DNA of 64,000 bases from a virus (Duplodnaviria > Heunggongvirae > Uroviricota > Caudoviricetes). Each line of letters begins with the position of its first letter. Within the stretch, counting starts at the first letter, position 1. This document shows, piece by piece, positions 1 to 52,700 of this stretch. The position numbers and the translations under genes were made by a program. The stretch is taken from the IMG/VR virus record IMGVR_UViG_3300037421_000106, one strand, 5' to 3'. The notes under the pieces are model-generated. The model was not told the DNA's origin and did no database searches. It worked only from the letters and a program-made list of their open reading frames with translations.

Positions 1-82
1 GATGACAGGGGCATTTTTCAAGGGATCCTCGGTGCGACCGAACCGCCGCCTCGCAAGCGTTGTCGGGAGGGTCTCTTGAAAA

Positions 83-16122: not shown

Positions 16123-16135
16123 GCTGGACTCCCAA

Positions 16136-29196: not shown

Positions 29197-29221
29197 ATTG
29201 AATCAAGATGGTATCACCGAA

Positions 29222-29915: not shown

Positions 29916-30023
29916 GTGATTCTCCTAAGGAATAGGTGGAGTAGCGTGATAACCCACGCCGGTCACCTTACAACTCCGGGCAACCTTTCGTTGGTACGCA
30001 CGGGCTCTGTCTGCCGGTCTATT

Positions 30024-30620
30024 CTACGCGATCCTGTGCGTCGGTTGGGGCAGACGTGAGCTTGCGCCCAGAACCGGCCTCTGATCGAATGCTTCGCCGG
30101 CATTGGGTGCCACAATGACGGTGGTACCCGGATCGGCCAACACCGGGGGCGCGATCTCGACTGTGCCACCACCCGCCCGCACAACCTCGCCAGTGCGCGG
30201 ATCGACAGCATGGGGAACGCCAGTCTCGCGTGTCAGGCGACCGGCTTCAACGTCGCCGGCCGGATTAAGCCAGGTGCCGATCTCGACCATTTCACCTTCG
30301 CCATTCTGCGCGAAGCGGCCAGTACCCTTGAAATGTTTCCCCGTAGTTGCCGGGATTTGCGTCACTTGCAAATCCTTCGATTGTAGGATCGGATCTCCGG
30401 CTAGCGCTGATGCCTTCTTAGTGGGGCGCGGCGCGCCGCCACCTGATTCTTTCTTCGAGCGTGGGGCCGTAACGAAATCAAGCGCGGCCTGCAGCTGTTC
30501 ACGCCATACATGGTCATGAGGCGACCCGGGCTCATTTTCGTAGACAAATGACTGCAGCGGATCCATCTGCCCTGTGCGAGCCAGTGCGTCGTTGCATTCA
30601 TCCCAGGTCGGCAGTATCAC
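30024..30620 (-). CDS. Hypothetical protein
   Basis: 198-aa ORF. Confidence 0.35.
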   Translation of the reverse strand: MILPTWDECNDALARTGQMDPLQSFVYENEPGSPHDHVWREQLQAALDFVTAPRSKKESGGGAPRPTKKASALAGDPILQSKDLQVTQIPATTGKHFKGTGRFAQNGEGEMVEIGTWLNPAGDVEAGRLTRETGVPHAVDPRTGEVVRAGGGTVEIAPPVLADPGTTVIVAPNAGEAFDQRPVLGASSRLPQPTHRIA

Positions 30621-31420
30621 TTCGTTCCTCCACGTCGAGCGGCATTCGCGGCCACGATGGTCGGAAGTGCCAAGTCCAGCATGTTTCGACGCTGCGCAGC
30701 CTTACGATCCTCGACTGCCTTGTGATCGCCAAACAGCAGTTGTTTGATTCGCTTCTGGTTGTCGCGCGCGCCGGGAATGTTACTGTCGGGCCGGGCCATG
30801 CGTTCCCAGATCGAACGCTTCGCCGGGTTGTCGACGGGCTCTGGACCTGGATCTGGCAGGTATGGTGCTCGTAGATACGCGATCAGCTCGGGCCTGAAAT
30901 TGTCGATTGCCATGCGGAGCTCGATTGGAATCTGCGATCGCTGCATATTCACGTAGTCGGCATCTGGAAAAGTCGCGGTATCGATCAGTGCGCTGATCTC
31001 TGGCGGTGCGCCAACCCACGGCAGAGGGTTGTCCTTAGGATTCCCGTTCGCCACATCCTTCGGATCAGGAACCATGCGGGTCACCCACGGGGTAATGACC
31101 TTGATCATACCCATTGGGTCCGGATGATCGAGCATGATGGTGATTCCCATCGCGGCCGCAGTACTGATGATCGTTTCGGCGATCGAGGGTTTGGCAGGCT
31201 CGGGAGGCGGTAGATCATCGATCGTGAGCTCTTGCCCACCCCCATCGCGCTCCTCGATGAACTCTATCAGATCCGCGCGACATTTTCGAATCTCTTGCAG
31301 CAGGTCTGCCGGAACCTTACGCTTCGGAGTAGCCGTGAGTTTTCCATCCGTGGGATTGATGCGCAGCTTGACACCGCGCTTTTCGCAGGCCTCTACGATC
31401 TCAGCGGGCTTCACGTTCAA
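30617..31420 (-). CDS. Protein with TubC_N-like N-terminal docking motif
   Basis: N-terminus AEIVEACEKRGVKLRINPTDGKLTATPKRKVPADLLQEIRKCRADLIEFI matches TubC_N pattern (L..GV.L...G.L....P.G.L...L...L..L...L). Confidence 0.35.
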   Translation of the reverse strand: MNVKPAEIVEACEKRGVKLRINPTDGKLTATPKRKVPADLLQEIRKCRADLIEFIEERDGGGQELTIDDLPPPEPAKPSIAETIISTAAAMGITIMLDHPDPMGMIKVITPWVTRMVPDPKDVANGNPKDNPLPWVGAPPEISALIDTATFPDADYVNMQRSQIPIELRMAIDNFRPELIAYLRAPYLPDPGPEPVDNPAKRSIWERMARPDSNIPGARDNQKRIKQLLFGDHKAVEDRKAAQRRNMLDLALPTIVAANAARRGGTK

Positions 31421-31815
31421 TCACCGTCGAAATCGCCGTCGGTATCAAGCACCGGCAGCGGAGGATATTGGACACCACGCACGGCGCCGATTATGGATTC
31501 ACGCGCATTGCTGATCAAAGCCTGCAGTTCGGCCGGCAGCGGCGTCGGAGTGTTGTCGGGTTGGAACGGCATCGTGACCGTCATCGTGGTGAAGTTGTTC
31601 GACAGAATGACATCGCCTCCGAGCGCCCGAATCCAGTCGAGCGCATACTGGCCTTTTGTCACTCGCAAACCTGGCGTACCTCCATTGAACATTCCGTCAG
31701 GGGCCCCATTGGGCTCGAACACGTTAGGCGGGTACGGCATATCAGGCTCCGTGCAAATCAGGCAGTTGAAACATGAACCGGAATTGCTCAGCATTGTCAG
31801 GATCACACTCACCAA
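31417..31815 (-). CDS. Hypothetical protein (C-terminus DTDGDFDGD)
   Basis: ORF with overlapping neighbours; start uncertain. Confidence 0.3.
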   Translation of the reverse strand: MVSVILTMLSNSGSCFNCLICTEPDMPYPPNVFEPNGAPDGMFNGGTPGLRVTKGQYALDWIRALGGDVILSNNFTTMTVTMPFQPDNTPTPLPAELQALISNARESIIGAVRGVQYPPLPVLDTDGDFDGD

Positions 31816-32137
31816 GGACCGCTTCTCGCACCATTCGCGGAGTCACTTCGTCATCCATGTCCCATAACGAATGAACGGTTTCGCGCACGCGAGACACGTC
31901 TTCTTTGTCTCGGACGTATGTAAACCAACGACCGTCTTCGAACATCTTCCGCAGACCTTCGTCCGCTTCGTCGACCGACCAACCCTGTATTTTCAGAGTC
32001 ATGAATCGTTCGGCGTCGGATGCATACGATACACATTCACCCGGCTGCAGGGTATGTGCGTGCGAGCCGCAGGACACTAAAACAAACATGCTACCGAGAA
32101 TCGATGCTGTCCAGAAGGCTCGCGTCAATACGACCAT
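31742..32137 (-). CDS. Putative lipoprotein
   Basis: MVVLTRAFWTASILGSMFVLVSC-GS signal peptide with lipobox (LVSC). Confidence 0.4.
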   Translation of the reverse strand: MVVLTRAFWTASILGSMFVLVSCGSHAHTLQPGECVSYASDAERFMTLKIQGWSVDEADEGLRKMFEDGRWFTYVRDKEDVSRVRETVHSLWDMDDEVTPRMVREAVLGECDPDNAEQFRFMFQLPDLHGA

Positions 32138-32138
32138 G

Positions 32139-32522
32139 TCAATCCTTATTCGGCACACCGTGCGATTGGCGCAACGACTCCATCAACCGCTCTTTGCAGT
32201 TGCTCTCCACTATATCATGGACCTGTTTCGCCGACAGCGTAAGATTACCGTAAATCCAATTCAGGGTATTGATTGCCTGCTGATCGTCGTCGTCGTCTTT
32301 GTAGATGCACGTCAGCCGATGAGCGGGATCGCGACAGATCTCCAGAGTCGCCGCCATCACACCGAGTTGCATCTTGAGGGACGCGTTCTTGACGTCGAAC
32401 GCTTCCTGCTTCGCGTCCCACGCGAACGCGTGGCATTCGGTTTCGTTCATCGTGTGGGCAACGGCGGCCCCGGCAACAGCATAGATCGCGAGCATGATCG
32501 AAAACGACAGGCTTCTCATCAC
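32139..32522 (-). CDS. Secreted protein (signal peptide)
   Basis: MMRSLSFSIMLAIYAVAGAAVA-HT signal peptide; Cys-containing, poly-Asp stretch. Confidence 0.4.
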   Translation of the reverse strand: MMRSLSFSIMLAIYAVAGAAVAHTMNETECHAFAWDAKQEAFDVKNASLKMQLGVMAATLEICRDPAHRLTCIYKDDDDDQQAINTLNWIYGNLTLSAKQVHDIVESNCKERLMESLRQSHGVPNKD

Positions 32523-33193
32523 AGGGTCCTTTCAAATGCGGCCACAGCCGCGGGAACGTATGGGCGAATCAGGTCGAGCATGGCTTCGGCGTAGACCCGT
32601 ATTTCAAACTGCGCATGCTCGTGCAAACGAAGCCTAAGGAAACCGAACAAGTTGTGCAGATCGACGGTCGCGAAGTGCTTGCTGTACGTGTTCAGTGGCA
32701 GCACGCCGCGCGCGAGCTCGCGGGGGCAACCGAGCGACAGGAGTTTTCTGTAGCTCCGGAACGATTCCACACACGCGCATCGGATCTCGTCCTGTATCTC
32801 AGCCGCATTCTCATTTACCTCGTCAGTCCGCATCTGCTTGTTGTGTTTCGACTGCGTCGTGATTTGGTCGAGCTCCGGCACGTAGAAACACTCTTCGAGC
32901 TCGCTGTAGCGTCCGGACTGCTCGTTGTACTTCCAGGTGCGGTGCCGATGCCACTGGCGGAAGTTGAAGATCGGAGCCTTCGCCTCGAAACAGAAGATCA
33001 CATGCTCGAATGGCGACGTGTGCTTGTTCTCCATCAGGTAAGCGATCAGCTTCTCGTCCGATCCGTCGTTGCGCGGCGCGGCGTTGTACGACACCCGGGC
33101 CGCGCGAACGATCATCTGGTCGTCGCCCATGTGGTCGACCAGGCGCACCATGCCGTGATCCAGCACGGCGCGCCAATTGAGGATAGGCTCGCT
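32519..33193 (-). CDS. thyX: Flavin-dependent thymidylate synthase ThyX
   Basis: ThyX signature RHRTWKYNEQSGRY (RHR-x7-S-x-RY) plus C-terminal ...RELARGVLPLNTYS; start taken at MSEPIL (upstream part of ORF is overlap). Confidence 0.75.
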   Translation of the reverse strand, partial: SEPILNWRAVLDHGMVRLVDHMGDDQMIVRAARVSYNAAPRNDGSDEKLIAYLMENKHTSPFEHVIFCFEAKAPIFNFRQWHRHRTWKYNEQSGRYSELEECFYVPELDQITTQSKHNKQMRTDEVNENAAEIQDEIRCACVESFRSYRKLLSLGCPRELARGVLPLNTYSKHFATVDLHNLFGFLRLRLHEHAQFEIRVYAEAMLDLIRPYVPAAVAAFERTL

Positions 33194-33633
33194 CATTTCG
33201 TCAGGTACGCCAGGGTCGACTCGATCGCGGCAACGTGCGCCGCGGGTACGAAGATCATCTTGCCGTCGGCCGGCGCCGGGCTCTGGCCAGGTTCGAAACC
33301 TGCGGCATCTCGCACCGCGGTCCAAAGTGCCGTGGCATCCACGGGGCGATCGGCGGTCCACACGGCCGCGTAGTAGAGTGCAGTCACGGCGGCGAGCAGT
33401 GCCCCACCGTCGTTCTCGTTGACATACTCGGTCAGCAGCACTATGGCGCGCGCCATGTACGACAGGTTCTCCGAATACAGACCTTCTCGATAGAATCCAT
33501 CGATCGACAGCCGCATCTTCTCGACTAGTTGCTCGACAGGCATCGCCACTATATGGGGAAACTCTTTCGGAGGCGCCGTTTCAATGGTCGCGACCAACTT
33601 GCTCTTCGGTGTCATGCTACCTCCATAGTGCAT
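33193..33633 (-). CDS. Hypothetical protein
   Basis: 146-aa ORF coupled to thyX. Confidence 0.35.
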   Translation of the reverse strand: MHYGGSMTPKSKLVATIETAPPKEFPHIVAMPVEQLVEKMRLSIDGFYREGLYSENLSYMARAIVLLTEYVNENDGGALLAAVTALYYAAVWTADRPVDATALWTAVRDAAGFEPGQSPAPADGKMIFVPAAHVAAIESTLAYLTK

Positions 33634-33932
33634 TGCAGGGGATGTCTGTGATTGCTTGCCGTGCCACGAACTTGGTAGACTCGAGTCTCGGCAATTTGAT
33701 GAGAATATACACCGGCCACGGCACGCCCTTCAGTATGAACCTTGAGCATGATATCGACCGCTTCGAAAGCGGTCTTGCCGAAGATCTGGATCAACAACTC
33801 AACCACGAACTCGGCCGGTGTGATGTCATCATTGATCAGAATCACAGCCCACAGTGGGGGCGGGGCTGGGGGTTGGATTTGACTGATCATACCCGGAACG
33901 ATTTCGCCGGGCACTGCGTAGGTGGCGCTCAT
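33612..33932 (-). CDS. clpS: ClpS-like ATP-dependent Clp protease adaptor
   Basis: WAVILINDDITPAEFVVELLIQIFGKTAFEAVDIMLKVHTEGRAVAGVYSHQIAETRVYQV...HPLQCTMEV aligns by eye with E. coli ClpS core ([24 protein letters not shown]...[25 protein letters not shown]...HPLLCTLE). Confidence 0.65.
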   Translation of the reverse strand: MSATYAVPGEIVPGMISQIQPPAPPPLWAVILINDDITPAEFVVELLIQIFGKTAFEAVDIMLKVHTEGRAVAGVYSHQIAETRVYQVRGTASNHRHPLQCTMEVA

Positions 33933-33933
33933 T

Positions 33934-34092
33934 TCATTCCCCACTGAGACGCGTATAGGCGCCCGCACGTTCGAGCTCTTCGATCTCTTCCTCGACTTCT
34001 TCGAGCGTCTCGCGATGACCGAGCCCAGTACGTAACGCCACGCTGACGCGAACCAGAATACCCCGCAGTCGGTTGCGATCCTCGGGAGTCAT
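33934..34092 (-). CDS. Small hypothetical protein
   Basis: short ORF, start at internal Met estimated. Confidence 0.2.
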   Translation of the reverse strand: MTPEDRNRLRGILVRVSVALRTGLGHRETLEEVEEEIEELERAGAYTRLSGE

Positions 34093-34298
34093 CGCGTCGT
34101 GTCCCGAGTGATCAACAGATCCGGGAAGTGACCCCATGGATGCACACTCATACCGAACGCGTAGTTACGGCATTGCTCCATGTCAATGAAATCTTTCGAA
34201 TGACTAACTTCCAGTCGTCCGTCGTACCAAACCTCCCGGCGACTGCTGGTACAGTTGTCGAACGTACCGGTTGGATGCTTCGGTTTCGTGGCCATCAC
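34089..34298 (-). CDS. Hypothetical protein
   Basis: 69-aa ORF. Confidence 0.3.
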   Translation of the reverse strand: MMATKPKHPTGTFDNCTSSRREVWYDGRLEVSHSKDFIDMEQCRNYAFGMSVHPWGHFPDLLITRDTTR

Positions 34299-34405
34299 TC
34301 AGTATCCTTCCAGTTGAATTCGCTCGGAGTCACTCGAACGAACATCCATGCAAGCAGGACGCCGAACATGACCAGTAATGATAGGAACACTTGATCGGGA
34401 GTCAT

Positions 34406-34603
34406 TCAGTCCTCCACGAATTGCCGGATCTCGGCGTCGAATTGGGTGTCGCGCTCGCGGGCGCCCAGGATGTGCTTGGCCTCTTCGAGAGACTTGAACT
34501 TGTCGCGCGTGCGACGGCCGGCGCGCTCGGGCGGGTTGAGCATGTTGCGGATGTTCCGCTCGACCGCTTCTTCGTACCGCTGCTGTCGGGTCTTAGCCAT
34601 CAC
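34406..34603 (-). CDS. Hypothetical protein
   Basis: 65-aa basic ORF. Confidence 0.3.
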   Translation of the reverse strand: MMAKTRQQRYEEAVERNIRNMLNPPERAGRRTRDKFKSLEEAKHILGARERDTQFDAEIRQFVED

Positions 34604-34959
34604 TTCCCCTTGGCGAGCCGACTGACACGGGCGCGTTCTTTCTTCGCCACCTTCAGCAGATCGCTCCAGACGTCCTGCTCGATGCGTATGCGCAACCGCT
34701 CGATGAAATTCATCGCATTGACGGCCTGCTCCATGACCATCACCGGGCGGGCGGGTTTGTTGCCGATGTCGAACCAGGCGAGCAGAACGTCGCGCAGGGC
34801 GTCGATCTCGCGGACATTCAGGCGGATGTTTCTGATTGCGGTCGCGGTGAGTCTGTTGCGGTCCGGCATGTATTGATACAGATCAGAATCGACCGACTTC
34901 ATAGGCGTTGCCTCCATCGAGTGAACAGTCATTATGGCAGTAAATGACGGTCGTGTCAA
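34600..34959 (-). CDS. Hypothetical protein
   Basis: 119-aa ORF. Confidence 0.3.
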   Translation of the reverse strand: MTRPSFTAIMTVHSMEATPMKSVDSDLYQYMPDRNRLTATAIRNIRLNVREIDALRDVLLAWFDIGNKPARPVMVMEQAVNAMNFIERLRIRIEQDVWSDLLKVAKKERARVSRLAKGK

Positions 34960-34967
34960 TAAATATC

Positions 34968-35099
34968 GTCGTCATTCTGATCAGCAATCTGCCGGATCAG
35001 ATCCAGGATCCAACAGCCGGCCGCCACGAGGGCTGCAGCGCACATTCCTGCAGTAACTGCTTGACAAACCGTCAGATCGTCGATCATCAGAATTTCCTC
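34968..35099 (-). CDS. Small membrane protein (43 aa), not in ORF track
   Basis: GAGGAA SD then MIDDLTVCQAVTAGMCAAALVAAGCWILDLIRQIADQNDDDIY*; one TM segment. Confidence 0.3.
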
Positions 35100-35236
35100 A
35101 AAACGAACATCAGATGATCGTACGCTTCGCGCGGAGTGGATCCTCTACGCGCAACCCATCCTAGCCGGCAATACCATACACCGCACTCGCGCCAAAGACG
35201 AGGCTTATGAGCCATTCGAATCACTCCGCGAAAAAA

Positions 35237-35833
35237 TTAAAACTCGGAACGAAGCGACAGGCTGAAAACGCCCCATCCCAATCCTTGGTACTGCGTCTGT
35301 ACCGAACCAACGTGGACATTCTCCGTGCGCAAGAGACGATAGTTGAAAATCAATTCCGCCACGGGAGTGCGATATCCGATCCCCGCCAGCGGTGACACAA
35401 GGGTTTGAGTGTTGTCCACTCGTAGACCCTGATGCGGCTTGACCGTCCCATCGGTCCAATCGGGGATATTCATCGCGAATCCCGAACGCGCGACGCCCAC
35501 CCCGATCTGCGCGAACGCCGGGCCCCAGTGAGGCTCGTACGCCGCCCAAATCCCATACGGATGCTCTACCCCGTACCAGTGGCTGTACGGAACACGCCCG
35601 TCACGACAGGCCGGCTCGTCTGCGCCACATGCGATCGCAGACGATGTCATCCTCCCCAGGCGCTCTGCCGACACGCTCCAGTTTGAGCCGACCAGCGTGA
35701 CACCATATGCCACACCTTCGTTGCGAAACGAATGAGGCTTCTCGGCTTGGTACCACGTACCATTCGGAGGATTCGTTTCGTAGGAGCCGCCGAGCAGCAG
35801 CTGCAGACATGCGGTAAACAGGCAATTCGTCAT
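35237..35833 (-). CDS. Outer-membrane beta-barrel protein (moron-like)
   Basis: Signal peptide MTNCLFTACLQLLLGG; aromatic-rich alternating pattern; C-terminal ...LSLRSEF ending in Phe (OMP C-terminal signature). Confidence 0.45.
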   Translation of the reverse strand: MTNCLFTACLQLLLGGSYETNPPNGTWYQAEKPHSFRNEGVAYGVTLVGSNWSVSAERLGRMTSSAIACGADEPACRDGRVPYSHWYGVEHPYGIWAAYEPHWGPAFAQIGVGVARSGFAMNIPDWTDGTVKPHQGLRVDNTQTLVSPLAGIGYRTPVAELIFNYRLLRTENVHVGSVQTQYQGLGWGVFSLSLRSEF

Positions 35834-36018
35834 TGCGTGGACTCCCTAATTGCTTGACGGGCCAGGTCGAGAATCTCGCCCGGAGTTATAGTTGGGCCGC
35901 CGAACGGACAGCGCGCGTGGCGTGCCTTGATCCATTCGAGATGCTTCCGGTCGAGTGCAGCGAGAAGCACAACGGCTTGCGCAGGACTGAGTGTCGGAAC
36001 CCCAACGGTGTTGAACAT
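35830..36018 (-). CDS. Hypothetical protein
   Basis: 62-aa ORF. Confidence 0.3.
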   Translation of the reverse strand: MFNTVGVPTLSPAQAVVLLAALDRKHLEWIKARHARCPFGGPTITPGEILDLARQAIRESTQ

Positions 36019-36033
36019 GTCGTTACCCCCGAT

Positions 36034-36190
36034 TCATACGTGAACCCACAGAATGACTGCGCAGAGTACTGCAACAAGCGCGTAGTCGAACGCCGCGCCG
36101 TGATGAGCGTATTTCCCGTACGAGAATTCCATGAGGGCGCGCAGAGTATAAATTGCGCATGTGAAGTAAAGCAGCCAGTGCACCTTCATC
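36034..36190 (-). CDS. Small membrane protein (52 aa), not in ORF track
   Basis: MKVHWLLYFTCAIYTLRALMEFSYGKYAHHGAAFDYALVAVLCAVILWVHV*; two hydrophobic segments. Confidence 0.3.
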
Positions 36191-36436
36191 TCCGGTTGCG
36201 GATCCAATGCAAGTGATGATGCTGGTCAAGTGATTCGGCGCGGCGCGACCGCCTGCATTGGCCTATGAACGGTGTGCCCGGCAAAGCCAGGTATTCCACC
36301 GAAAGTTCGGCACGTCGGGCGGGTCACAGGTAATTAGCGCCTCGCCGCTTCGACTCGCAACCGGCGGCGCCGCCGGCCCTATCACTTGAACAGCATCATC
36401 GAGAGCGAGACTGTAGCACATGATCCGATCTGATGC

Positions 36437-36466
36437 AAGAAAAAAATAGGCCCCGAAGGGCCTATT
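36437..36466 (-). terminator. Rho-independent terminator (minus strand)
   Basis: AATAGGCCC-CGAA-GGGCCTATT hairpin followed on minus strand by TTTTTTTCTT, immediately after stop of 36470-37333. Confidence 0.7.
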
Positions 36467-36469
36467 AGG

Positions 36470-37333
36470 CTATCGCCTAACTGCGTCATCTCCACCACCG
36501 CCCCCGCCGCCACTCGGCGGAGAGACGTAATGCTGCTGCAGACCATTCCCCCAAATCGGAATGTAGGAGAAGAACGTAGCATTGTCGAGGATGCCGCAAT
36601 TGAATCCACCGCATCCCGAACCCGTGAACGTCACCAGATACGTTCCCGGCTGCAACACGTTCCCCGTGCTTTGGTTCAGGACCCATTCGTCGCACTGCAC
36701 CCAGGTGTTGCAGGCGTAGGTGGCGTGATTGAATTGCGCCACCGTCCCATCGCCCAAAAGAGCCGGCTGACCCGTCGAGACCCATTGCTGCAACATGCAA
36801 GGGGATCCGCCGCAGAAGCCCTGCCCCATCACCGGAACCGTGTTTCCGTTGGCATCAGTCGTAGTCTCCGGCACCGCCTGAACGATCGAGACTAGAGGCG
36901 CGCCATTAACGTCTGTTGCCGGCATGTATGTCAGATACGTCGGCGGAGGACATCCGCGCCCTGAACACACGCCTCGCCCTTCCTGACCGTACAACGTCCA
37001 CGGCATGTTGGTGATGACCCATCCGCCGCCAGCTGCCGTAGCTGCCGCGTCTGACGTGTAATAGCCGGAGAAACTGGCCTGGATAGCACCGGAGAAATCT
37101 TCAGTCACCAGAGGGTTGCCAGTGCCGCCAATGCGGAAAGTGGTCTGCGTGTATGTGCCGTTGACCAGTGCCCCTTGATAGATAGTCTCACGTCCGCTGT
37201 TACCCGCGGTGCTGATCTGCGGCGGAAACGGATTGGGGGTAGGACCCGCGCATGGCGCAGCGTGAGTGCACGTCTGCGCGAGCGCAAACGTCGAAAACAG
37301 CAATGCGAAACATCCTGCAATGAATTGCTTCAT
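36470..37333 (-). CDS. Secreted Cys-rich protein with poly-Gly C-terminus
   Basis: MKQFIAGCFALLFSTFALA-QTC signal peptide; many Cys; ends SGGGGGGGDDAVRR; own terminator. Confidence 0.45.
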   Translation of the reverse strand: MKQFIAGCFALLFSTFALAQTCTHAAPCAGPTPNPFPPQISTAGNSGRETIYQGALVNGTYTQTTFRIGGTGNPLVTEDFSGAIQASFSGYYTSDAAATAAGGGWVITNMPWTLYGQEGRGVCSGRGCPPPTYLTYMPATDVNGAPLVSIVQAVPETTTDANGNTVPVMGQGFCGGSPCMLQQWVSTGQPALLGDGTVAQFNHATYACNTWVQCDEWVLNQSTGNVLQPGTYLVTFTGSGCGGFNCGILDNATFFSYIPIWGNGLQQHYVSPPSGGGGGGGDDAVRR

Positions 37334-37438
37334 TTTCCCGCTTCCTTTATTCAACATCCCGAGAACCGCTCGGTACGGTGGTTCGATAGCCTGATCTTAC
37401 CCGAAATCAAAGTCAACTCATCCGATCGGTTGAGGGTG

Positions 37439-37464
37439 AAAAAAATCCCCGCATATGCGGGGAT
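37439..37464 (-). terminator. Rho-independent terminator (minus strand)
   Basis: ATCCCCGCA-TA-TGCGGGGAT hairpin followed on minus strand by TTTTTTTCACC. Confidence 0.65.
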
Positions 37465-37603
37465 TGTCAGTTGGTTGTCACCACGACTGTAACTGAGATC
37501 GGTATCGTGGCGTAAATGCGACGGTGTCTCCGTCTTTCTCGCCATCTCCGCCACTTGGGTGAGTACCGCCAGTTAAGCTCGCGGACTAGCCCAAGGACCG
37601 AGC

Positions 37604-37915
37604 TCACGACAACGTGACTGTCACGGACAGCGGAATCGTCGCCGTCACATTCGGCACCGTAAACGGCAGCGAGACCACCGCGGGGGCGGCCGGGCGGGCC
37701 GTTTGCGCGTCAATCCGTTCCGCCGAGATCGTGTAGGTGCCAGGGGCAACGTTGTTGAACGTGACCGACACTTGCGTGCCCGTGCCCGTGGTGTCTTGCC
37801 CACTTTGCGTGGACACGATCGCGCCGGTGCTGTCCAGCAGATTGAAGTTGACCGGCCCTACCAGACCCACGTTAACCGGGCTGCCGAGGCTGGCGACTGC
37901 GTTTGCATTCATCAT
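37604..37915 (-). CDS. Hypothetical protein (possible Ig-like fold)
   Basis: About 103 aa from MMNANAVASLG; T/S/V-rich beta-strand character. Confidence 0.3.
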   Translation of the reverse strand: MMNANAVASLGSPVNVGLVGPVNFNLLDSTGAIVSTQSGQDTTGTGTQVSVTFNNVAPGTYTISAERIDAQTARPAAPAVVSLPFTVPNVTATIPLSVTVTLS

Positions 37916-37987
37916 GGTGATTCCTTTCGAAGAAGTGAATCGAGAGTATGCCACGCTGCAGTGCAGCGTGGGGACCCTCTGATTCGA

Positions 37988-38155
37988 TTACAGCTTTTTC
38001 ACTGCTGATTGAGCAGCTGCCACATCGGCCTTGATCTTTTGAGCGATCATCGGATGCTTCGCCTGCACGAACACGCCAACCACGACAGCGGCTGCGTGAG
38101 TGCTGATCAGCAATGCGTTGGTAGCCAGAAATGCGTACACGGAACTGAACATGGG
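37988..38155 (-). CDS. Small membrane protein (55 aa), not in ORF track
   Basis: GGAG SD then MFSSVYAFLATNALLISTHAAAVVVGVFVQAKHPMIAQKIKADVAAAQSAVKKL*. Confidence 0.35.
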   Translation of the reverse strand, partial: PMFSSVYAFLATNALLISTHAAAVVVGVFVQAKHPMIAQKIKADVAAAQSAVKKL

Positions 38156-38334
38156 ATTCTCCCAAAAGAATGAGCCTGCGATGGTACTCCGAATTTGACT
38201 GTTGCGCGGATGCCACTTTCGCGTGTCAACTGTCTGGAAGTATCGACCCTGTATCCCGCCAGCAAGTGATATATGGTTACCAGTAGGTCTTTGGCTGATT
38301 GGCGGAACAGGACACCATAGTTCTAGACAGTCGA

Positions 38335-39981
38335 CTACACCTCATCCTCGTCAGGTAGATACCCCACGCGAGTGGGTGTCTCTCCGTCGGCGCGCTCGCG
38401 CACCAGGCCGTCGGTGAACTTGAATTGCGCCAGGCGTTGCACATTTGCAACAGCCTTCAGCTTCTCCAGCGTCTCTTCATCCGGAATGGCCAGCACCGCA
38501 TAGGCGTCAGCGCACGCGTCGACCCCGTCATCGTGGCGGCAGTCTGGGAACGGCCGGAAGTGATCCTTGACAGCGTCGGCGCAGTGTGCCATGACCGCGA
38601 CCCACCCCACGTTCAGCTGCGAGGCGAGTGGGTCTGCGCGTGTCTGTTTATCCGATCGCGCAGGGCGCTCCACAACTGTGTAACCGTCAAGCAGCTGTGT
38701 GATGGTCATGAATTGGTCGGTGCCTGCCTGGCCCGGCTCCACCGGCACCGCTATCTTCACGTCACGTCCGTCGCGATGTGCTGTTGCCTTCATCCGCGCC
38801 TTTACCTCATCCGGGCGCGCGCGAAACAGCATGAATTCCTCGATGACGTAGATGTGCACCTGGGGGTAGTACGCCAGCAGCACGCTCGCTGTGAAGTCGG
38901 GCTCGGTCCTACCCGCCTTGAGCTCACGCGCGGCCAGGTCCCATCCGCGGCAGGCTAGGCGAGGACCCGGCGGCCGCACCGTGATCACCGGCATAGCGTC
39001 GACCTTGAATGTCGTACCCGACACGTTGTACGGCTGCTGCATATACTGCGTGGCGAACTCCCACGGTTTCTGCAGGCGATACGCATGCAGCCACTCTGTA
39101 GTGGCGCCGCCTTCCCATCGCGAGTTGTCGTTCTCGTCGAGCGCGGTCAGAGTCAGGTTATGGAACTTGACGCCCAGGATGCTGGTCATGTCCTGACGCC
39201 CATGTTCATCTGGTAGATGAAGCTTCGAGAAAATGTCGTCCGTGGCGGCCCGCTGACCGATCACCAGGAACGGCGTGCGCGTCGTCTCGTTGCGTCGCGA
39301 GTTCACGACACCGCCGACGACGCTCAGCACTTCCTCCTTGCTGAGCTCGCTCTTGGCCTCCTGCAGTTTATGCAAGTCGTCCATGATCAGCGCGCCCGAG
39401 AAGCGATCGAGCACACCTTTGATGCCGACGCCGAAGCCCGTGATCTGGCCGTTGATGCCGACGAACTTCATGTTGCCGCCCTGCGTCGTCTTCGACACCT
39501 CCTTACTGTCGTTCTTCCGGTCGATGACGGTCCGCGGAAACAGCCGCTTGTACAGCGCTGATCCCATCATGTCGCGACGAATCAGGTCCGACGAGTCATT
39601 GGCCAGCTTCTCCGTCGAGCAGATATACATGATGTTACTGTCCGGGAAGCGCCCCATCCCGAACGCGATCCACATGCACACGATGTACGTCTTACCGAAC
39701 CGCGGCGGGATGTTGATGTCGGCGCCCAGGTACTTCCCCTCGAAGCACTGCTGTAAGAATTGCATGAGCGTCGTGTGGAACTCCTGCTCGTCAAACGGCC
39801 GCCCGTCGGAGAGCTCCATGTGCATCAGGTGCACGAAACTGCGGAAGTCCTGCCGGGCCATTGCCTCGCGCACGGCCTGGTGCTGCTCGGGCGTGAGTGC
39901 CTGCTCTGGCCCGGGCTCCTCGGGCGGCAAGACACCGTATGGCGTCACCTCCCACAGGATCGGATCATCTTGCAATCGCAT
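38335..39981 (-). CDS. Terminase large subunit
   Basis: Walker A-like PRFGKTY, DD-containing ATPase core (GALIMDDLHK), C-terminal nuclease-like region; preceded by TerS-like gene; start taken at MRLQDDP (upstream segment overlaps membrane-protein gene). Confidence 0.65.
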   Translation of the reverse strand: MRLQDDPILWEVTPYGVLPPEEPGPEQALTPEQHQAVREAMARQDFRSFVHLMHMELSDGRPFDEQEFHTTLMQFLQQCFEGKYLGADINIPPRFGKTYIVCMWIAFGMGRFPDSNIMYICSTEKLANDSSDLIRRDMMGSALYKRLFPRTVIDRKNDSKEVSKTTQGGNMKFVGINGQITGFGVGIKGVLDRFSGALIMDDLHKLQEAKSELSKEEVLSVVGGVVNSRRNETTRTPFLVIGQRAATDDIFSKLHLPDEHGRQDMTSILGVKFHNLTLTALDENDNSRWEGGATTEWLHAYRLQKPWEFATQYMQQPYNVSGTTFKVDAMPVITVRPPGPRLACRGWDLAARELKAGRTEPDFTASVLLAYYPQVHIYVIEEFMLFRARPDEVKARMKATAHRDGRDVKIAVPVEPGQAGTDQFMTITQLLDGYTVVERPARSDKQTRADPLASQLNVGWVAVMAHCADAVKDHFRPFPDCRHDDGVDACADAYAVLAIPDEETLEKLKAVANVQRLAQFKFTDGLVRERADGETPTRVGYLPDEDEV

Positions 39982-40253
39982 CAGAGGACCCAGACCAGCA
40001 CCGTCAGCGCGAATCCGATGCAGTAACCGCCGAAGTCGATCCACCCTGATTGAATTGACGCACCTTCTTCATGCAAGTCGAACCAGAACTCCTTCCACGC
40101 TGTGAACGCCACCGCGGCCGCGAGCCCGTACCAGCGCAGGCCGGGCAGCCAATGCGACCACAGCGCCAGCACCGTGAAGATCATGAACGCGTGCAGCTCC
40201 AACGACGTCGTGACGGGCGACAACATGTATTTCTTGAACCAATTCACGAACAT
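39981..40253 (-). CDS. Small integral membrane protein
   Basis: 90 aa with 3 hydrophobic segments between TerS and TerL. Confidence 0.4.
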   Translation of the reverse strand: MFVNWFKKYMLSPVTTSLELHAFMIFTVLALWSHWLPGLRWYGLAAAVAFTAWKEFWFDLHEEGASIQSGWIDFGGYCIGFALTVLVWVL

Positions 40254-40422: not shown

Positions 40423-41106
40423 TTAACTCCTAAGGATTGGATCGTCCGCCAGTCTAATTGGGGACGTAGTAGACGAGACCGAAACGGGCCTGCCCGTAAC
40501 GACCGTGGCGTCAGTGGCCCGCGCATTCATCGTCCGCAGCCACAGGGAGGCTGCGTGGTCGATCTGAGCCTGGGTCATCCCGGCCGCCGGATCAACCGGC
40601 GTGTCGACCTTCACGCGCGTGGGCGCGTCGATGCCCAGGAGCATGGCGCGTCGATGCCACAGCTTCAGCAGCAGGCCTATGGCTTCGTTCTGAGGCCCCT
40701 CGTCGACCATCTCCTCCAGGACCGGCTGTAGCTGCCCCGTGTTCACGTTGCGCTCCAACAGCACCTGGCCATCAGCGCCCTTCACCGGGATCATGACGAC
40801 CTGGCCGGCGTTCACCTTGATGTACTTGCGCTGCGTCTTCTTGAACAGCTGTGCCTCGACTTTGTCGTATTTCTCCAACTCCATCTCGCGAAACTCCTCG
40901 GCGGCCTGCGAGGGGTTGTCCTGCATGTAGCGCCTGATCATCTTGCTGCAGCCCGAGACGCTAAGCCCCAGCTGATCTGCGCATTCCTTAAGGGTAAGCC
41001 CCTTCAGGCGCAATTCCAGCACTTGCTTCGTTCGCTCGTTGCGCTCGATGGCCGCTACGGTAGTCTTCCCGTGAGAAGGAGCGTGTGGTGTGTGCGATGT
41101 TGACAT
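40423..41106 (-). CDS. Terminase small subunit (HTH-containing)
   Basis: 227 aa; N-terminal HTH-like LKGLTLKECADQLGLSVSGCSKMIRR; first gene of late operon, immediately upstream of membrane protein and TerL. Confidence 0.5.
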   Translation of the reverse strand: MSTSHTPHAPSHGKTTVAAIERNERTKQVLELRLKGLTLKECADQLGLSVSGCSKMIRRYMQDNPSQAAEEFREMELEKYDKVEAQLFKKTQRKYIKVNAGQVVMIPVKGADGQVLLERNVNTGQLQPVLEEMVDEGPQNEAIGLLLKLWHRRAMLLGIDAPTRVKVDTPVDPAAGMTQAQIDHAASLWLRTMNARATDATVVTGRPVSVSSTTSPIRLADDPILRS

Positions 41107-41224
41107 TTCAGGGCCTTGAATTATTTGAGAAATTTTGAAAATTTTGTAGCACTTTCGTCAATTGTAGCATGTCTATAGCCGAGCGCCCGATGCTTATCGC
41201 GACCCTGACCCTAAATCCGGTACC

Positions 41225-41430
41225 TTTTTTTGTGCAACGCATCATTAGTGAGCACTTACTCGTTGTATCGGCGCAACAATGTCGCATTTCTGCCATGCAG
41301 CAAATGACGCAATGCAGCAAATGTTGCATTTGCGCCACTGTCGCATTTTGGAGACACAATGTCGCATTTTAGAGACATGTATCATTTGTGCCACTGTTGC
41401 GCATTCGCAACATTTGCTGCATTTCGGCGT
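41225..41430. promoter_or_regulatory. Divergent control region: array of ~10 GCAAATG/CATTTGC half-sites plus palindromes (iteron/operator-like)
   Basis: TGTCGCATTT x3; perfect palindromes GCAAATG-TTG-CATTTGC (about 41308-41324) and TGTTGCG-CATT-CGCAACA (about 41394-41411); lies between late operon start and first early gene. Confidence 0.5.
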
Positions 41431-41651
41431 TTGCGGGAGAGGGCGGCCGTTCGTCTGGTAGCCCTACAGTCAGAGACGAAAATGTGGCATGTGTCGGGCT
41501 ATCACGCGACGATTGCCACGGGTTCGGTTTTGTAGTAGACTGTCCGTATGTATAGGGTTTGCATTCCCCAGCTAGGACAGTATTTAACCCAAGGGGTTGT
41601 TTTGCTGACCGGGGGAAACGGAAAGCCGTTCATAAGGACAGTAGGCTACAT

Positions 41652-42455
41652 ATGACAGAATTGCTCGAACAGCTACTAGCACCGCACGACGTAATTCCGG
41701 CCCCTTGGGTGTCGCAAATGTTGCGCACGTTGGGATTGCCAAAGCTACATACTCGCGCGCTTACCGACGCTATGAGCGCCGCGGGATTCGAGCGGATCGA
41801 TCGCCCTCGGCTAGGCGCAATGGTGAACAGCGCGTATCGGGGTCGACGCTTTGATACTAGGTCGTGGCCTATACCCGGGGTAGGTCACTGCACTGTCTAC
41901 GTGCGAAATACCGCGGGTGACGCTGAAACGATGGTTCGCAAATACGGGCAAAATATCCCGATCCGTGGTCATGCGGCGCGGGTGTTTCAATGGCTCGATA
42001 CGTTCCCGCGCAAACCTGATGGGCGTCAAACCCGGTTCGAGGATAAACCAGGACGGCGCACGTTGGCGCGTCTGGCAATGGGTGAGATTCTCTATCATGC
42101 TAAACGTTCAGCAGCAAAGGGCGGAAAGCGCGGGCCGGCGCGAGCGACAATCTGTCGCGTTTGCGGGGTCAATCCGCCTACCCATGCGGGTGCGCGATGC
42201 AAAGAGTGTTTGTTGGTATGGCGCCGTGCATTCGACTATCCAGCGCAACGCATCAAACCCGCAAGTGACGCAAGCGCGCCAGTGATCCCCCTTGGACGCA
42301 AGCGGGCGCTCGCGCGTCAGACGGCGCGTATCGAGTCAGAGCGACAAGTGGCAGAGGGCCGCGCATTTGCTGCTGATCTGGCGCGCCGACGCGCCGCGGG
42401 TGAGGCAATCCCGCCCCCTGTCAAACCTTACTGGGTTAGTGACAATGACACGTAG
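41652..42455 (+). CDS. Hypothetical early protein with C-terminal Cys4 ribbon (CRVC...CKEC)
   Basis: First gene rightward of control region; start at MTELLEQ with AGGA SD; ORF-track start 41559 is probably too early. Confidence 0.4.
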   Translation: MTELLEQLLAPHDVIPAPWVSQMLRTLGLPKLHTRALTDAMSAAGFERIDRPRLGAMVNSAYRGRRFDTRSWPIPGVGHCTVYVRNTAGDAETMVRKYGQNIPIRGHAARVFQWLDTFPRKPDGRQTRFEDKPGRRTLARLAMGEILYHAKRSAAKGGKRGPARATICRVCGVNPPTHAGARCKECLLVWRRAFDYPAQRIKPASDASAPVIPLGRKRALARQTARIESERQVAEGRAFAADLARRRAAGEAIPPPVKPYWVSDNDT

Positions 42456-43489: not shown

Positions 43490-43706
43490 CATGCACGGCA
43501 CAATCGTCAGTAAGGTTCGCGTCACTCTGTCCGACGGGTCACATGTGTTTGACGTGGTTATGTCCCGCCCGGGCGCTGAAATGGTTCGGTTCAATTGTCC
43601 TGATGAACCGGACGCAGATTCGTTCGTTACGGGTTTACATACGCTCCTCAACTATCACACGCTAGACTGCGCGCATCGTGGTCTTGACCGTGAGGAGAAT
43701 TGCTAA
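43490..43706 (+). CDS. Small hypothetical protein
   Basis: GGAGA SD; MHGTIVSKVRVTLSDG...; 72 aa; stop overlaps next start. Confidence 0.35.
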
Positions 43707-44704
43707 TGAACAAGTACGAATTGATCGGCGAACCGAATGAATGCGGATTGCGGCGCATTCGGTATCTGTCGGACGGTAGTTTAGGGGGATGGCTGGAAAG
43801 CGAAACGAATTTGTCGCAATCAGGCGATGCCCGCGTGTTCGGCGATGCCCGCGTGTACGGCAATGCCCGCGTGTTAGGTAATGCCCGCGTGTACGGCAAT
43901 GCCCGCGTGTTAGGTAATGCCCGCGTGTTCGACAATGCCTGCGTGTTAGGTAATGCCCGCGTGTTCGGCAATGCCCGCGTGTTCGGCAATGCCCGCGTGT
44001 TAGGCACTGTCGAGGTGTTCGACAGTGCCCGCGTGTTCGGCAATGCCCGCGTGTTAGGCAATGCCCGCGTGTACGGCGATGCCCGCGTGTACGGCAATGC
44101 CGAGGTGTTCGACAATGCCCGCGTGTTAGGCACTGTCGAGGTGTACGACGATGCCCACGTGTTCGGCGATGCCCGCGTGTTCGGCGATGCCAGCGTGTTC
44201 GACAATGCCCGCGTGTTCGGCAATGCCCGCGTGTACGACGATGCCAGCGTGTTCGGCAATGCCTGCGTGTTAGGCACTGTCGAGGTGTTCGACAATGCCC
44301 GCGTGTTAGGCACTGTCGAGGTGTTCGACAGTGCCCGCGTGTTCGGCGATGCCAGCGTGTTCGGCAATGCCCGCGTGTTCGGCAATGCCCACATGTACGA
44401 CGATGCCCGCGTGTACGGCGATGCCCGCGTGTACGGCAATGCCGAGGTGTTCGACAATGCCCGCGTGTTCGGCAATGCCGAGGTGTCGAAAACCCCCATT
44501 TGTTTGAGTGGTTTACAGTGGTATATTACGATAACCGAAAATCACATGTTTATTGGGTGCCAAGGTCACACACATGCCGAATGGGCGTCATTTGACGATG
44601 ACACTATCAAACGCATGGATGTTCGGCATGCGCTCAAATTTTGGAAAGACAACGCGCGTATTCTTCTCACTCTTTGCGAGCGTCAAGCAAATGCCGCACT
44701 TTAG
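43700..44704 (+). CDS. Hexapeptide-repeat (left-handed beta-helix-like) protein; ~37 tandem NARV[FYL]G repeats
   Basis: 334 aa; unique N-terminus (50 aa) and C-terminus (~55 aa, Cys/His-containing) flank a perfectly periodic 6-aa repeat A-R-V-[FYL]-G-[ND], encoded by 18-bp tandem DNA repeats GGCAATGCCCGCGTGTTC (about 43800-44490). Confidence 0.55.
   Translation: MLMNKYELIGEPNECGLRRIRYLSDGSLGGWLESETNLSQSGDARVFGDARVYGNARVLGNARVYGNARVLGNARVFDNACVLGNARVFGNARVFGNARVLGTVEVFDSARVFGNARVLGNARVYGDARVYGNAEVFDNARVLGTVEVYDDAHVFGDARVFGDASVFDNARVFGNARVYDDASVFGNACVLGTVEVFDNARVLGTVEVFDSARVFGDASVFGNARVFGNAHMYDDARVYGDARVYGNAEVFDNARVFGNAEVSKTPICLSGLQWYITITENHMFIGCQGHTHAEWASFDDDTIKRMDVRHALKFWKDNARILLTLCERQANAAL
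43800..44490. repeat. 18-bp tandem repeat array (about 37 copies) inside 43700-44704
   Basis: Consensus gGcaATGCCCGCGTGTtc repeated head-to-tail with point variants (CGAGGTG, CAGCGTG, TACGAC variants). Confidence 0.85.
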
Positions 44705-48277: not shown

Positions 48278-49017
48278 TGAAAAAACCCACCGGTTACGTG
48301 ATCTACCGGGGTCCGTCGCAATTGGATGGCGCGCCCATCGTTGCGATTGCCACGATGAAAAGCGACAATCGCAAGACGGGCAACATGGTGCAAACGTGGA
48401 TTTTGCGCGACGATCGGTCGCCCATGGAAACGTCCAAAGCGGGCGCCGATGGTTCAGTGTGCGGCGACTGTAAGCATCGATGGTCACTCGGTGGCGCGTG
48501 TTATGTCAACATCGGGCAGGGTCCGGGCGCGATCTTTCGCGCGTTCCAGCGCGGTAATTATCAAGACTTGACGCAAGCGAATTCCCCGCTTTGGGCAATC
48601 GCTCAGATCACGCGCGGCCGCACGGTGCGACTCGGCGCATACGGTGATCCCGCAGCGGTTCCCGTGCACGTCTGGGAAGCAATCACGGCGGAATCCGACG
48701 GGCACACGGGCTACACGCACCAATGGCGCAACCCCGTCGCTGAACCGCTGCGCGGGCTTTGCATGGCCAGCGTCGACACTCCCGATGAATACGCGGCCGC
48801 GCAGCGCGCGGGGTGGCGCACGTTTCGCGTGCGGTGCACGGATGACGATAGCGTTATGCCCCGTGAATTCGAGTGCGTCAGCGACACCAAGGGAACCGCT
48901 TGCGCCGATTGCCGCGCATGCGACGGTGCGGCGCGCGGCCCGGGTCAGGCATCGGTCTTTATCACGGTGCACGGGTCGTTAAAAAGCCGGTTCCCGGTAA
49001 CGATCGCCCGCGCGTGA
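48277..49017 (+). CDS. Hypothetical Cys-rich protein
   Basis: MKKPTGYVIYRG...; ~246 aa; CGDCKH, CADCRACDG clusters. Confidence 0.4.
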   Translation: MKKPTGYVIYRGPSQLDGAPIVAIATMKSDNRKTGNMVQTWILRDDRSPMETSKAGADGSVCGDCKHRWSLGGACYVNIGQGPGAIFRAFQRGNYQDLTQANSPLWAIAQITRGRTVRLGAYGDPAAVPVHVWEAITAESDGHTGYTHQWRNPVAEPLRGLCMASVDTPDEYAAAQRAGWRTFRVRCTDDDSVMPREFECVSDTKGTACADCRACDGAARGPGQASVFITVHGSLKSRFPVTIARA

Positions 49018-49591
49018 AACACCCCGCGCCACGGCGCGCCACGGGTCCGCCAGCGCGGGCCGGCCCGCTTTTGGTTATCCGCGCACCTCCCGAGCAAATG
49101 CGGGGCGCCAGCGCGCGCCTACGCGGCCGCGCGGGGTATCCGGATGCAGGCTATAGCTTGCCGTTTGCGCTCGAATGTGCAGGCTGTAGCCTGCCCGTGG
49201 GGTGTTGCGAAAACGCCACCGCAGCAAATGGTGCGGTGCGGATGAACGGTCGGTTTGATAGTGAGTACTGACATTTGGTGCAATGCAGCACGGCTGTCAG
49301 GGATTGCTGACAGGGAACCCCTACATGGGGACAGAGACGACTCGAGCCTGGAGGCCGACTATGGCGTCGCGCGCGGCATCATCGCGAACAGAGAACTCCG
49401 TAGAGACTGGCGCTTACAGCCGGCGCTGTGCGCATTTATCGAGTGCCAGTGGACGCGGGAGGATACAGACACTCTACGCCTACTCTGCAGTGGATGCATC
49501 GACGCACCTATGTGCGTGCCGACCGGATCTACGCTTGCGAATGCGATGAATGAGACATACGTGCGCGGAGTGCCTCGGTGACGACCCCTTA

Positions 49592-49652
49592 CCATCCATC
49601 CACCGGTATGTAAGCCATCCATCCACCGGTATGTAAGCCATCCATCCACCGG
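49592..49652 (+). repeat. 23-bp direct repeat (2.65 copies) immediately upstream of homing endonuclease start
   Basis: CCATCCATCCACCGGTATGTAAG x2 + CCATCCATCCACCGG; the last copy supplies GGAG SD for 49661. Confidence 0.8.
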
Positions 49653-49660
49653 AGATATCA

Positions 49661-50230
49661 ATGCGCATTGGCATTCTGTACATGCACGTGGGTCCAACTG
49701 GGAAGATCTATATTGGAAAGACATGGCAGCCAAAAGGCGAGCGCTTCAACGGAAATTGGGCGCGTCAATACACCAAATCCATGGCGGCCGATGCGTTGCG
49801 TTACGGCCGTAAAGCTTTCGAAACGATCGAGCTCTATCGGATAGAGAGCGAGGACCCGTCATATGACGACCAGCAACTGGCGATGCTGGAGATCATGGCT
49901 ATTGAATTATTCAACAGCAGGACTCCGCGCGGATACAACATCGCCCGAGGCGGCGGCCGAGCGCCAAGCGCGCCTGAAACATGCGCCAAGATCAGCGGCG
50001 AAGGAAACCCGATGTTCGGTCGGAAACACACGAAGCGAACAGTGAAACAAATGACAGAGGCGCGTCGGGCAGAAAATCTCCCGGAAGAACAACGCATAGC
50101 GATGCGAGAGGCAAATAAGTTGCGTCCGCGCAACGCGCGCGGGCATTATATCAAACTCGGGACTGAGTATCATCCCAATACACTTAAGCGGCGAGGTATA
50201 AAACCCTTGACCATCCAGCCGGGGGTATGA
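49661..50230 (+). CDS. GIY-YIG homing endonuclease with NUMOD3 repeats
   Basis: GILYMHVGPTGKIYIGKT...YNIARGG (GIY-YIG core) followed by NUMOD3-like repeats (PETCAKISGEGNPMFGRKHTKRTVKQM). Confidence 0.75.
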   Translation: MRIGILYMHVGPTGKIYIGKTWQPKGERFNGNWARQYTKSMAADALRYGRKAFETIELYRIESEDPSYDDQQLAMLEIMAIELFNSRTPRGYNIARGGGRAPSAPETCAKISGEGNPMFGRKHTKRTVKQMTEARRAENLPEEQRIAMREANKLRPRNARGHYIKLGTEYHPNTLKRRGIKPLTIQPGV

Positions 50231-52595: not shown

Positions 52596-52700
52596 ACTAT
52601 TTCATCGTAAATGTTGGTGATGGCTTGCAACGATTGTATCGCATGCGCATTTACGCCGATGGGCGCCGAGAAATAATCTCAATCCACTGAGGAGCAAATC

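Follow-up and report, generated by a model that had tools for sequence, protein, structure and literature searches.

The 64,000-nucleotide stretch of tailed-phage DNA analyzed here (IMG/VR record IMGVR_UViG_3300037421_000106, Caudoviricetes), referred to as the window, covers most of a phage genome of about 72 kb and contains a dense array of short CATTT-centred sites in both orientations, located in the gap between its divergently transcribed gene blocks. The array is real, far above chance and conserved. It most likely serves as a docking platform for a phage DNA-binding protein, be it a replication origin, a gene switch or a packaging start, and thus belongs to a known kind of element. Our tentative preference is an iteron-type replication origin like those of staphylococcal pathogenicity islands (SaPIs) and phage P4, ahead of an operator array, which in turn ranks ahead of a packaging (pac) site.

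Anatomy of the Array

The array lies in a 545-bp gap (41107-41651) that separates the leftward gene at 40423-41106 from the rightward one at 41652-42455; this gap is the genome's only divergent junction. In the 181 bp from 41260 to 41440 the CATTT core occurs nine times, whereas its frequency elsewhere in the window predicts 0.31 occurrences, and it mostly forms part of either TGNNNCATTT or the dyad AATG-N3-CATT. Of the 21 copies of the former in the window, 9 fall within 41280-41490, a density about 170-fold above that found elsewhere. The dyad, allowing at most one mismatch, has 8 of its 32 window copies at 41236-41491, and the approximately eight dyad-like sites start at 41236, 41278, 41303, 41320, 41337, 41358, 41376 and 41481. 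All three exact copies of ATGCAGCAAATG in the window are found inside the array, as are three exact copies of TGTCGCATTT (41280, 41339 and 41360), which occurs once more elsewhere in the window.

A sequence-only reading of the window had described this element as about ten copies of a 7-bp motif (GCAAATG/CATTTGC) at 41225-41430, together with two palindromes and three TGTCGCATTT direct repeats. The CATTT counts confirm a dense cluster of one motif family in both orientations, and the three direct repeats are exact. However, the 7-bp motif itself is present in only four exact copies and in seven with one mismatch (another 206-bp stretch of the window reaches six one-mismatch matches), and what recurs is the CATTT core. 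Both perfect palindromes, GCAAATG-TTG-CATTTGC (41317-41333) and TGTTGCG-CATT-CGCAACA (41395-41412), are present, but the emphasis on them was misplaced because they are private to the window, the relatives having GCAAGTG or GCAATTG, and TGTTGCGCATTTGCAACA or CGTGGCGCATTTGCAACA. The array also continues past 41430 to an outlying conserved site at 41481-41491. The motif search proposed in that reading detected no second cluster in the 64-kb window, and the two outcomes it had named as fatal, a motif at background frequency and an array missing from relatives, did not materialize: the motif is far above background and every relative found carries the array.

The overall layout is that of two inverted arms (41277-41345 and 41389-41437), 80% complementary to each other, which flank a 43-bp centre. 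The left arm, with 49% GC, consists of TGTCGCATTT, two direct ATGCAGCAAATG units, TGTTGCATTTGC and GCGCCACTGTCGCA, and contains CATTT cores in both orientations. The centre (41346-41388) is AT-richer (35% GC), carries cores too, and is composed of 21-bp direct units, CA(A/C)TGTCGCATTTT(G/A)GAGACA, and TGTATCATTTG. The right arm (55% GC) contains TGCCACTGTTGCGCATTCGCAACATTTGCTGCATTTCGGCGTTTGC and four ATT(T/C)GC-like hexamers spaced 8-9 bp apart, at 41403, 41412, 41421 and 41429. Two AATG-N3-CATT-like sites lie outside the arms: AACGCATCATT to the left of the array (41236-41246), and AATGTGGCATG within AAATGTGGCATGTGT (41481-41491), which is invariant in five lineages and precedes the early promoter's -35 element by 21-30 bp, a spacing that varies among lineages. 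As a single strand the array folds arm on arm (fold z-score -5.4), and this dyad recurs in the relatives tested (fold z-scores -5.2, -3.7, -3.4, -3.3 and -1.9), the pairing topology being found in five lineages.

Conservation and Turnover Among Relatives

Six lineages were available for comparison: the window; UViG_3300037852_000220 (UViG220, L002); Ga0210403 (L009); ERZ k141 (ERZ, L005, the same lineage as L010); Ga0599139 (L011); and SRR18636063 (L012). UViG220, a close relative, is an IMG/VR contig of 71,837 bp that is circularly permuted with respect to the window, its base 1 corresponding to window position 52975. No relatives beyond these six lineages were found in IMG/VR and bacterial genomes, none in 185,579 bacterial and archaeal genomes, and no DNA-level match to cultured phages among 50,697 phage records. 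Among 5.8 billion proteins, only three homologues of the small terminase and five of the first early protein were detected. The phage clade is rare and uncultivated. The order terminase-like gene, gap, early gene is common to all six lineages and, because this synteny is unbroken, the comparison is unable to assign the array to one of its neighbours or to separate the three readings.

The gap contains between 6 and 11 CATTT cores in each of the six lineages. When the window is compared with ERZ, DNA identity is 70% and 82% in the flanking genes, whereas it is 90-97% in the left half of the array and about 80% in the right half; conservation of the left half beyond that of the flanking genes suggests selection. 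Units such as ATGTTGCATTTGCGCCAC persist even in SRR18636063, in which identity has dropped to 33% for the early protein, 48% for the terminase-like protein and 53% for the next small protein. The GCATTT side of the units is steadier across lineages than the AATG side. The centre is the part that turns over: its 21-bp unit occurs twice in the window, is converted in UViG220 and occurs once in Ga0210403 and Ga0599139, while in ERZ the stretch is rearranged, and the number and type of centre units differ among near-identical strains. This we count in favour of the origin reading, as tolerated turnover. In Ga0599139, a recombinant lineage, the array stays with the terminase side.

Known motifs were also searched for. 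Motifs for sigma-54, sigma-28, DnaA, IHF, CRP and LexA, as well as GATC, are absent from the array or not conserved in it, and no Rfam family matches 40900-41900 or 48900-49750. Sites of the P2 Ogr type (TGT-N12-ACA) were rejected: three are present in the array of the window, but they are not conserved in ERZ and do not lie at -55 of the late promoter. Array-like words (GTAAATGTTGG and TTGCAACGATTGTATCGCATGCGCATTTACG, no exact copies) occur in the gap at 52596-52700, which contributes to the second-densest one-mismatch GCAAATG cluster (6 in 206 bp); they may be due to chance or to a promoter region.

The Array as a Candidate Replication Origin

The phage encodes a protein of the type that recognizes such arrays, an 825-residue P4-family primase/superfamily 3 (SF3) helicase (61416-63893, + strand) that comprises an NrS-1 prim-pol HBD, a D5_N domain, a DUF5906 (SF3 helicase) domain and a C-terminal Pox_D5 winged-helix domain. 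The protein scores 233 bits with the TIGR01613 'P4 family primase' model, whose cut-off is 109, and 22.3 bits with Pox_D5, whose cut-off is 21.4. Pox_D5 is the winged-helix domain equivalent to the origin-binding domain of the P4 alpha protein (PMC2777425). SaPI origins are described as sets of 6-12 penta- or hexanucleotide iterons that flank an AT-rich central region and are oppositely oriented on its two sides; a self-loading helicase recognizes them by means of its C-terminal winged helix (PMC9371898). Both components are found in this phage: the array supplies short repeats in that number within a few hundred base pairs, and the 825-residue protein is an SF3 helicase with a C-terminal winged helix. 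The array resembles the origins of SaPIs and other phage-inducible chromosomal islands (PICIs) and of phage P4, which are served by Rep, PriRep and P4 alpha, in having about ten short (5-10 bp) repeats in about 200 bp, in both orientations and around an AT-richer centre.

A further likeness is that relatives of the primase-helicase carry arrays. In IMG/VR, 36 of the 72 related primase-helicase loci have a repeat-dense 200-bp segment within about 400 bp after the gene, compared with 1.4% of background segments, and these arrays repeat a single short motif in either orientation (e.g., CGCGACCCATTG three times and its complement three times). No array was found inside or after the primase-helicase gene of the window, and the origin of this phage must therefore lie elsewhere. 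Within the 64 kb, the CATTT array is the sole cluster of this style, which speaks for it as the origin. Cumulative GC skew reaches a minimum near 41 kb, a signal confounded with the switch in transcription strand at that point.

In the mechanism that we envisage, the approximately ten CATTT-centred sites, in both orientations, would be bound by the winged-helix domain of the phage initiator, two helicase rings would assemble, one on each side, and the 43-bp AT-richer centre would melt. The initiator would most likely be the P4-family primase/SF3 helicase, although the winged-helix/Cys4 early protein encoded next to the array might act instead of it or together with it. The analysis shows how the array is built, that it is unique in the window and conserved, and that the phage encodes an initiator of a suitable type; which protein binds the array, and that replication starts there, we infer. 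Since the array lies between divergent promoters, a protein bound to it may also affect transcription, so that the origin and operator readings are compatible with each other.

The primase-helicase gene has an uneven history. Compared with UViG220 it is mosaic, with no DNA match over the first ~560 bp and 80% identity over the remainder, while its neighbours are 95-97% identical, and its 3' third is GC-poor (38-51% versus 57% for the genome). At the protein level, identity is 84% over the full length and rises to about 90% in the C-terminal 90 residues, despite the 80% DNA identity.

Several observations weigh against an origin at this place. SaPI and P4 arrays are found immediately downstream of the initiator gene, and the origin also adjoins the initiator gene in relatives and in pRN1, whereas the array described here is about 20 kb away from the 5' end of the primase-helicase gene and about 50 kb, around the circle, from its 3' end. 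In contrast to SaPI and P4 origins, it is located in a divergent promoter region by the terminase genes, many of its units are dyad-like, and the replicon is not a satellite but a 72-kb myovirus that encodes its own DNA polymerase. The two sides differ in core orientation only in part: the well-conserved cores mostly share one direction, and the inverted cores of the left arm drift (from AAATG to AATTG or AAGTG). No DnaA or IHF consensus sites occur in the array, although SaPI-type origins do not need them, and no protein is directly linked to the array. Moreover, the phage has two other repeat-rich non-coding stretches, one of them nearer to the replication genes.

The latter is a 300-bp gap upstream of the DNA polymerase gene, seen in UViG220 just outside the window (L017:15782-16082), the polymerase gene itself starting at window position 83. 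This gap contains two 50-bp direct repeats, each with the hairpin CGGTCAGCAC-GAGA-GTGCTGACCG, and several GT-rich motifs resembling GGTTTGGTAAGG in one orientation, and is an alternative origin candidate. Window positions 1-78, the counterpart of its last 78 bp, are unrelated in sequence. The second stretch (49018-49660) is large and includes three tandem 23-bp units, CCATCCATCCACCGGTATGTAAG (49592-49660), in front of a homing-endonuclease-like open reading frame (ORF), the near-palindromes GCAGGCTATAGCTTGC and GCAGGCTGTAGCCTGC, GC-rich repeats, and a conserved hairpin CTGTCAGGGA..CTGACAG. It has the 11-mer GCAATGCAGCA and two copies of AGCAAATG in common with the array, and is about 77% identical to UViG220, compared with 95-97% for the neighbouring genes. 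As a second copy of the array motif, analogous to crr of P4, this stretch is unconvincing, being 77% conserved and having the common 11-mer altered in UViG220.

An iteron origin of the plasmid or lambda type was considered as well and rejected, because a spacing of 17-21 bp is found only in the centre and there is no DnaA box. The AT-rich stretch at 41107-41185 is about 90 bp away from the array, which also counts against such an origin, and no Rep_3 or lambda-O-like protein is present among the proteins scanned.

Flanking Promoters and a Possible Early/Late Switch

The array is bordered by two sigma-70-like promoters. The early promoter (TTGCCA-17-TAGACT, 41513-41541, + strand) has both hexamers kept in the relatives with a spacer that varies, and the leftward one (TTGACG-18-CAAAAT, 41132-41161, - strand) precedes the small-terminase-like gene in a stretch of 37% GC; at its position ERZ has, on reading the sequence, TTGTCG-17-TATAAA. 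The main array is upstream of both promoters, roughly 85-235 bp from the early -35, with its end about 76 bp away, and 115-275 bp from the late -35, and overlaps neither core. Between array and leftward promoter there is a conserved block (41192-41231), consisting of GCTTAYCGCGACCCTGACCCTAAATCCGGTACC and then seven consecutive T, that occurs once in the window and is 100% identical in four lineages. The other two carry a second allele, AGTGAGYGCTAACCAACCCTA (L011:7551-7596 and L012:545-595), and one of these two matches the window exactly over the rest of that side; the alleles share ACCCTA(AAT), and the block looks like a swappable cis element. An imperfect palindrome of 14-16 bp, TTAGTGAGCACTTACT (41245-41260), can be read between this block and the array in all lineages, with variation.

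The first early gene (41652-42455, + strand) encodes a 267-residue orphan protein with a predicted winged-helix-like fold, a CxxC-N11-CxxC motif and a near-invariant C-terminal tail. In line with the Cys4 ribbon attributed to it earlier, four cysteines (C168, C171, C183 and C186) are invariant. The structural model with the winged-helix-like domain is of only moderate confidence (predicted local distance difference test, pLDDT, of 67). Its putative recognition helix is identical in the window and ERZ, and all five homologues agree in its first residues. Searches of Pfam, PHROGs, NCBIfam and PDB profiles yielded nothing useful on its family. Over the C-terminal ~80 residues (42218-42455), the tail AADLARRRAAGE-IP-P--KP-WV is near-invariant in homologues otherwise only 33-35% identical, which suggests a docking peptide for a conserved partner.

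These features make an operator array for the early/late switch the second reading, one that we regard as possible yet doubtful. A regulator, most plausibly the product of the adjacent first early gene, would bind the AATG-N3-CATT sites cooperatively and form a higher-order complex between the divergent promoters, which would shut the early promoter and/or activate the terminase/virion promoter. A location between two conserved sigma-70-like promoters, at the one place in the genome where genes diverge, agrees with this function, as does the dyad-like character of eight sites, which is typical for dimeric regulators. Also in agreement are the isolated invariant site upstream of the early -35, the predicted winged-helix-like domain of the neighbouring protein with the same putative recognition helix in window and ERZ, and the lack of any recognizable regulator among the other early proteins scanned. 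Control regions with multiple sites are known from phi29, in which p4 and p6 act between divergent early and late promoters, and from the O1-O3 operators of Mu, and in both the sites overlap the promoters that they control. The array is like these in having many sites in about 200 bp between divergent early and late units and an adjacent gene for a small DNA-binding protein, and unlike them in overlapping neither promoter core; none of the proteins scanned showed homology to p4, p6 or Mu Repc.

This missing overlap with the promoters is the main difficulty for an operator, and others exist. The distance from the isolated site to the -35 element is not fixed (21-30 bp), and at least ten sites with gain and loss of units in near-identical strains would be unusual for a precise switch. 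In several dyads the left half is unconserved and only the GCATTT half is conserved. Moreover, among the three flanking genes that of the early protein has diverged most (55% identity in ERZ and 33% in L012) while the motif is unchanged, and the structural model of this protein has only the moderate confidence mentioned above. Of the two functions offered by the sequence-only reading, operator array and iteron origin, both remain the leading candidates, the origin having gained from the P4-family initiator and the SaPI-like layout and the operator having lost from the lack of promoter-core overlap. That list was incomplete, however, since the leftward gene encodes a small-terminase-like helix-turn-helix (HTH) protein and a pac site has to be considered too.

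The Small Terminase and a Possible Packaging Site

The first gene of the leftward virion block (40423-41106, - strand) encodes a 227-residue protein with an N-terminal HTH of the sigma-70-region-4 type and a match to phrog_645. It is read as a small terminase because of these two features and because its homologue in the Streptomyces phage Zuko directly precedes the large terminase gene. The predicted model is too poor (pLDDT 46) to reveal a small-terminase fold, and a PDB sequence search returned generic HTH matches only. If the array were a pac site, the HTH ring of the small terminase would engage the repeats, bend or wrap the DNA, and position the large terminase for the first headful cut, much as at SPP1 pacL and the hexamer clusters of P1 pac. 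We consider this unlikely.

A pac site would be expected next to this gene, and the array is indeed located about 170-330 bp upstream of the small-terminase-like start codon, in the only sizeable non-coding stretch adjoining the terminase genes. The large terminase belongs to the Terminase_6C group, and its weaker relatives include those of T1-like phages, of which TLS packages by the headful mechanism from a pac site (PMC11447400). The 71.8-kb relative is circularly permuted with respect to the window, and contigs read through the array, which fits headful packaging and not fixed cos ends. A cos site was rejected on the same ground, the contigs being differently permuted and running through the array, and because the large terminase is unlike those of the lambda and HK97 types; a 1.3-kb terminal repeat suspected in the UViG220 contig was checked and is not there. 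A weak point in favour of packaging is that the array travels with the terminase side in the recombinant Ga0599139.

Known packaging sites provide a mixed comparison. In most characterized headful phages pac lies inside the small terminase gene, which counts against a packaging role for this array. With SPP1/SF6 pacL-pacC-pacR and P1 pac it shares repeats upstream of or around the small terminase promoter, an N-terminal HTH and a headful-related terminase type; it differs in having far more and much better conserved copies and in lying wholly outside the terminase gene. Part of SPP1 pac does lie upstream of the small terminase gene (PMC4737164). In general, known pac and cosB repeats are few and loosely conserved, and the SF6/SPP1 small terminase binds with little sequence specificity. 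The ring-wrapping model does not require dyad-symmetric units or an inverted-arm layout, and the poor structural model of the 227-residue protein further counts against this reading. Between the window and L012 only about 3 of the 12 residues of the HTH recognition helix of the terminase-like protein are kept while the DNA motif is unchanged, which leans against base-specific reading by this protein.

Constancy of the motif while three neighbouring phage proteins diverge to 33-53% identity is what a constant host factor would produce. Hence, the binder could also be a host nucleoid protein or global regulator, or the array could be a centromere-like site of a plasmid-like carrier state, but the probability of either is low. 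The array has no DnaA, IHF, CRP or LexA consensus, the roughly 60 proteins scanned include no ParA/ParB-like or other partition protein that could act as partner of a parS-type site, and the search of 185,579 bacterial and archaeal genomes gave no relative and no sign of a prophage or plasmid.

In two lineages, an additional gene separates the small terminase gene from the late promoter region. ERZ has an Endonuclease_7 gene there (L005:1865-2209), and UViG220 (L002:2883-3452, - strand) has a Cys-rich ORF of 169-189 residues with no Pfam match. They are probably insertions, homing endonucleases at the same spot. That they belong to the array system was rejected, since the window has neither.

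Genome Context

The leftward genes from about 5 to 41.1 kb form the virion module of a myovirus and include those for tail sheath (14623-16179), major head protein (19997-21085), portal (27037-29196) and large terminase (38335-40044), along with baseplate proteins and a protease. The array had been placed between a 38-kb late operon and the first early gene; the gap does lie between a leftward and an early rightward gene, but this 'late operon' starts with the small-terminase-like gene and holds about 9 kb of non-structural genes. Between large terminase and portal (29200-38300) it consists of small leftward genes that include thyX (ThyX, 32519-33361) and one for a ClpS-like protein, and it is therefore not purely structural. 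The rightward genes begin at 41.65 kb, run on into window positions 1-4.5 kb and are mostly orphans; those with assignments encode a dCMP deaminase, a nucleoside deoxyribosyltransferase, an SNF2-type helicase, the primase-helicase and the DNA polymerase. One early gene (43700-44704) encodes a 334-residue protein made of YdcK-type beta-solenoid/bactofilin-like repeats and is internally the most repetitive DNA of the window. No tRNAs were found.

Concluding Remarks

A more specific scenario would reconcile several of these functions: an origin of the P4 type may have been displaced by about 20 kb, to the control region that lies between early and late genes and adjoins the terminase genes, where a single array would couple replication, the transcription switch and perhaps packaging. 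We rate this combined version as improbable. A possible parallel for such a layout is the control region of polyomaviruses, in which pentanucleotide sites for an SF3 helicase initiator, with dyad symmetry and next to an AT tract, lie between the divergent early and late units and serve both replication and transcription control. The likeness would be one of layout only, since polyomaviruses belong to an unrelated lineage and we do not suggest homology of sequence.

Whichever of the readings discussed here is right, the array represents an element of known kind, found in a phage clade that is rare and uncultivated. It is the clearest cis-acting element of this clade and provides a defined target of 160-260 bp in which to look for an origin, a switch or a pac site. 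As a switch or a pac site it would be an ordinary example of its kind. If it is an origin, P4/SaPI-type initiators can act far from their own gene in a large lytic myovirus, which would be useful for predicting origins in metagenomic phages, and if the combined scenario proves true, the array would represent a tailed-phage counterpart of the polyomavirus control region.

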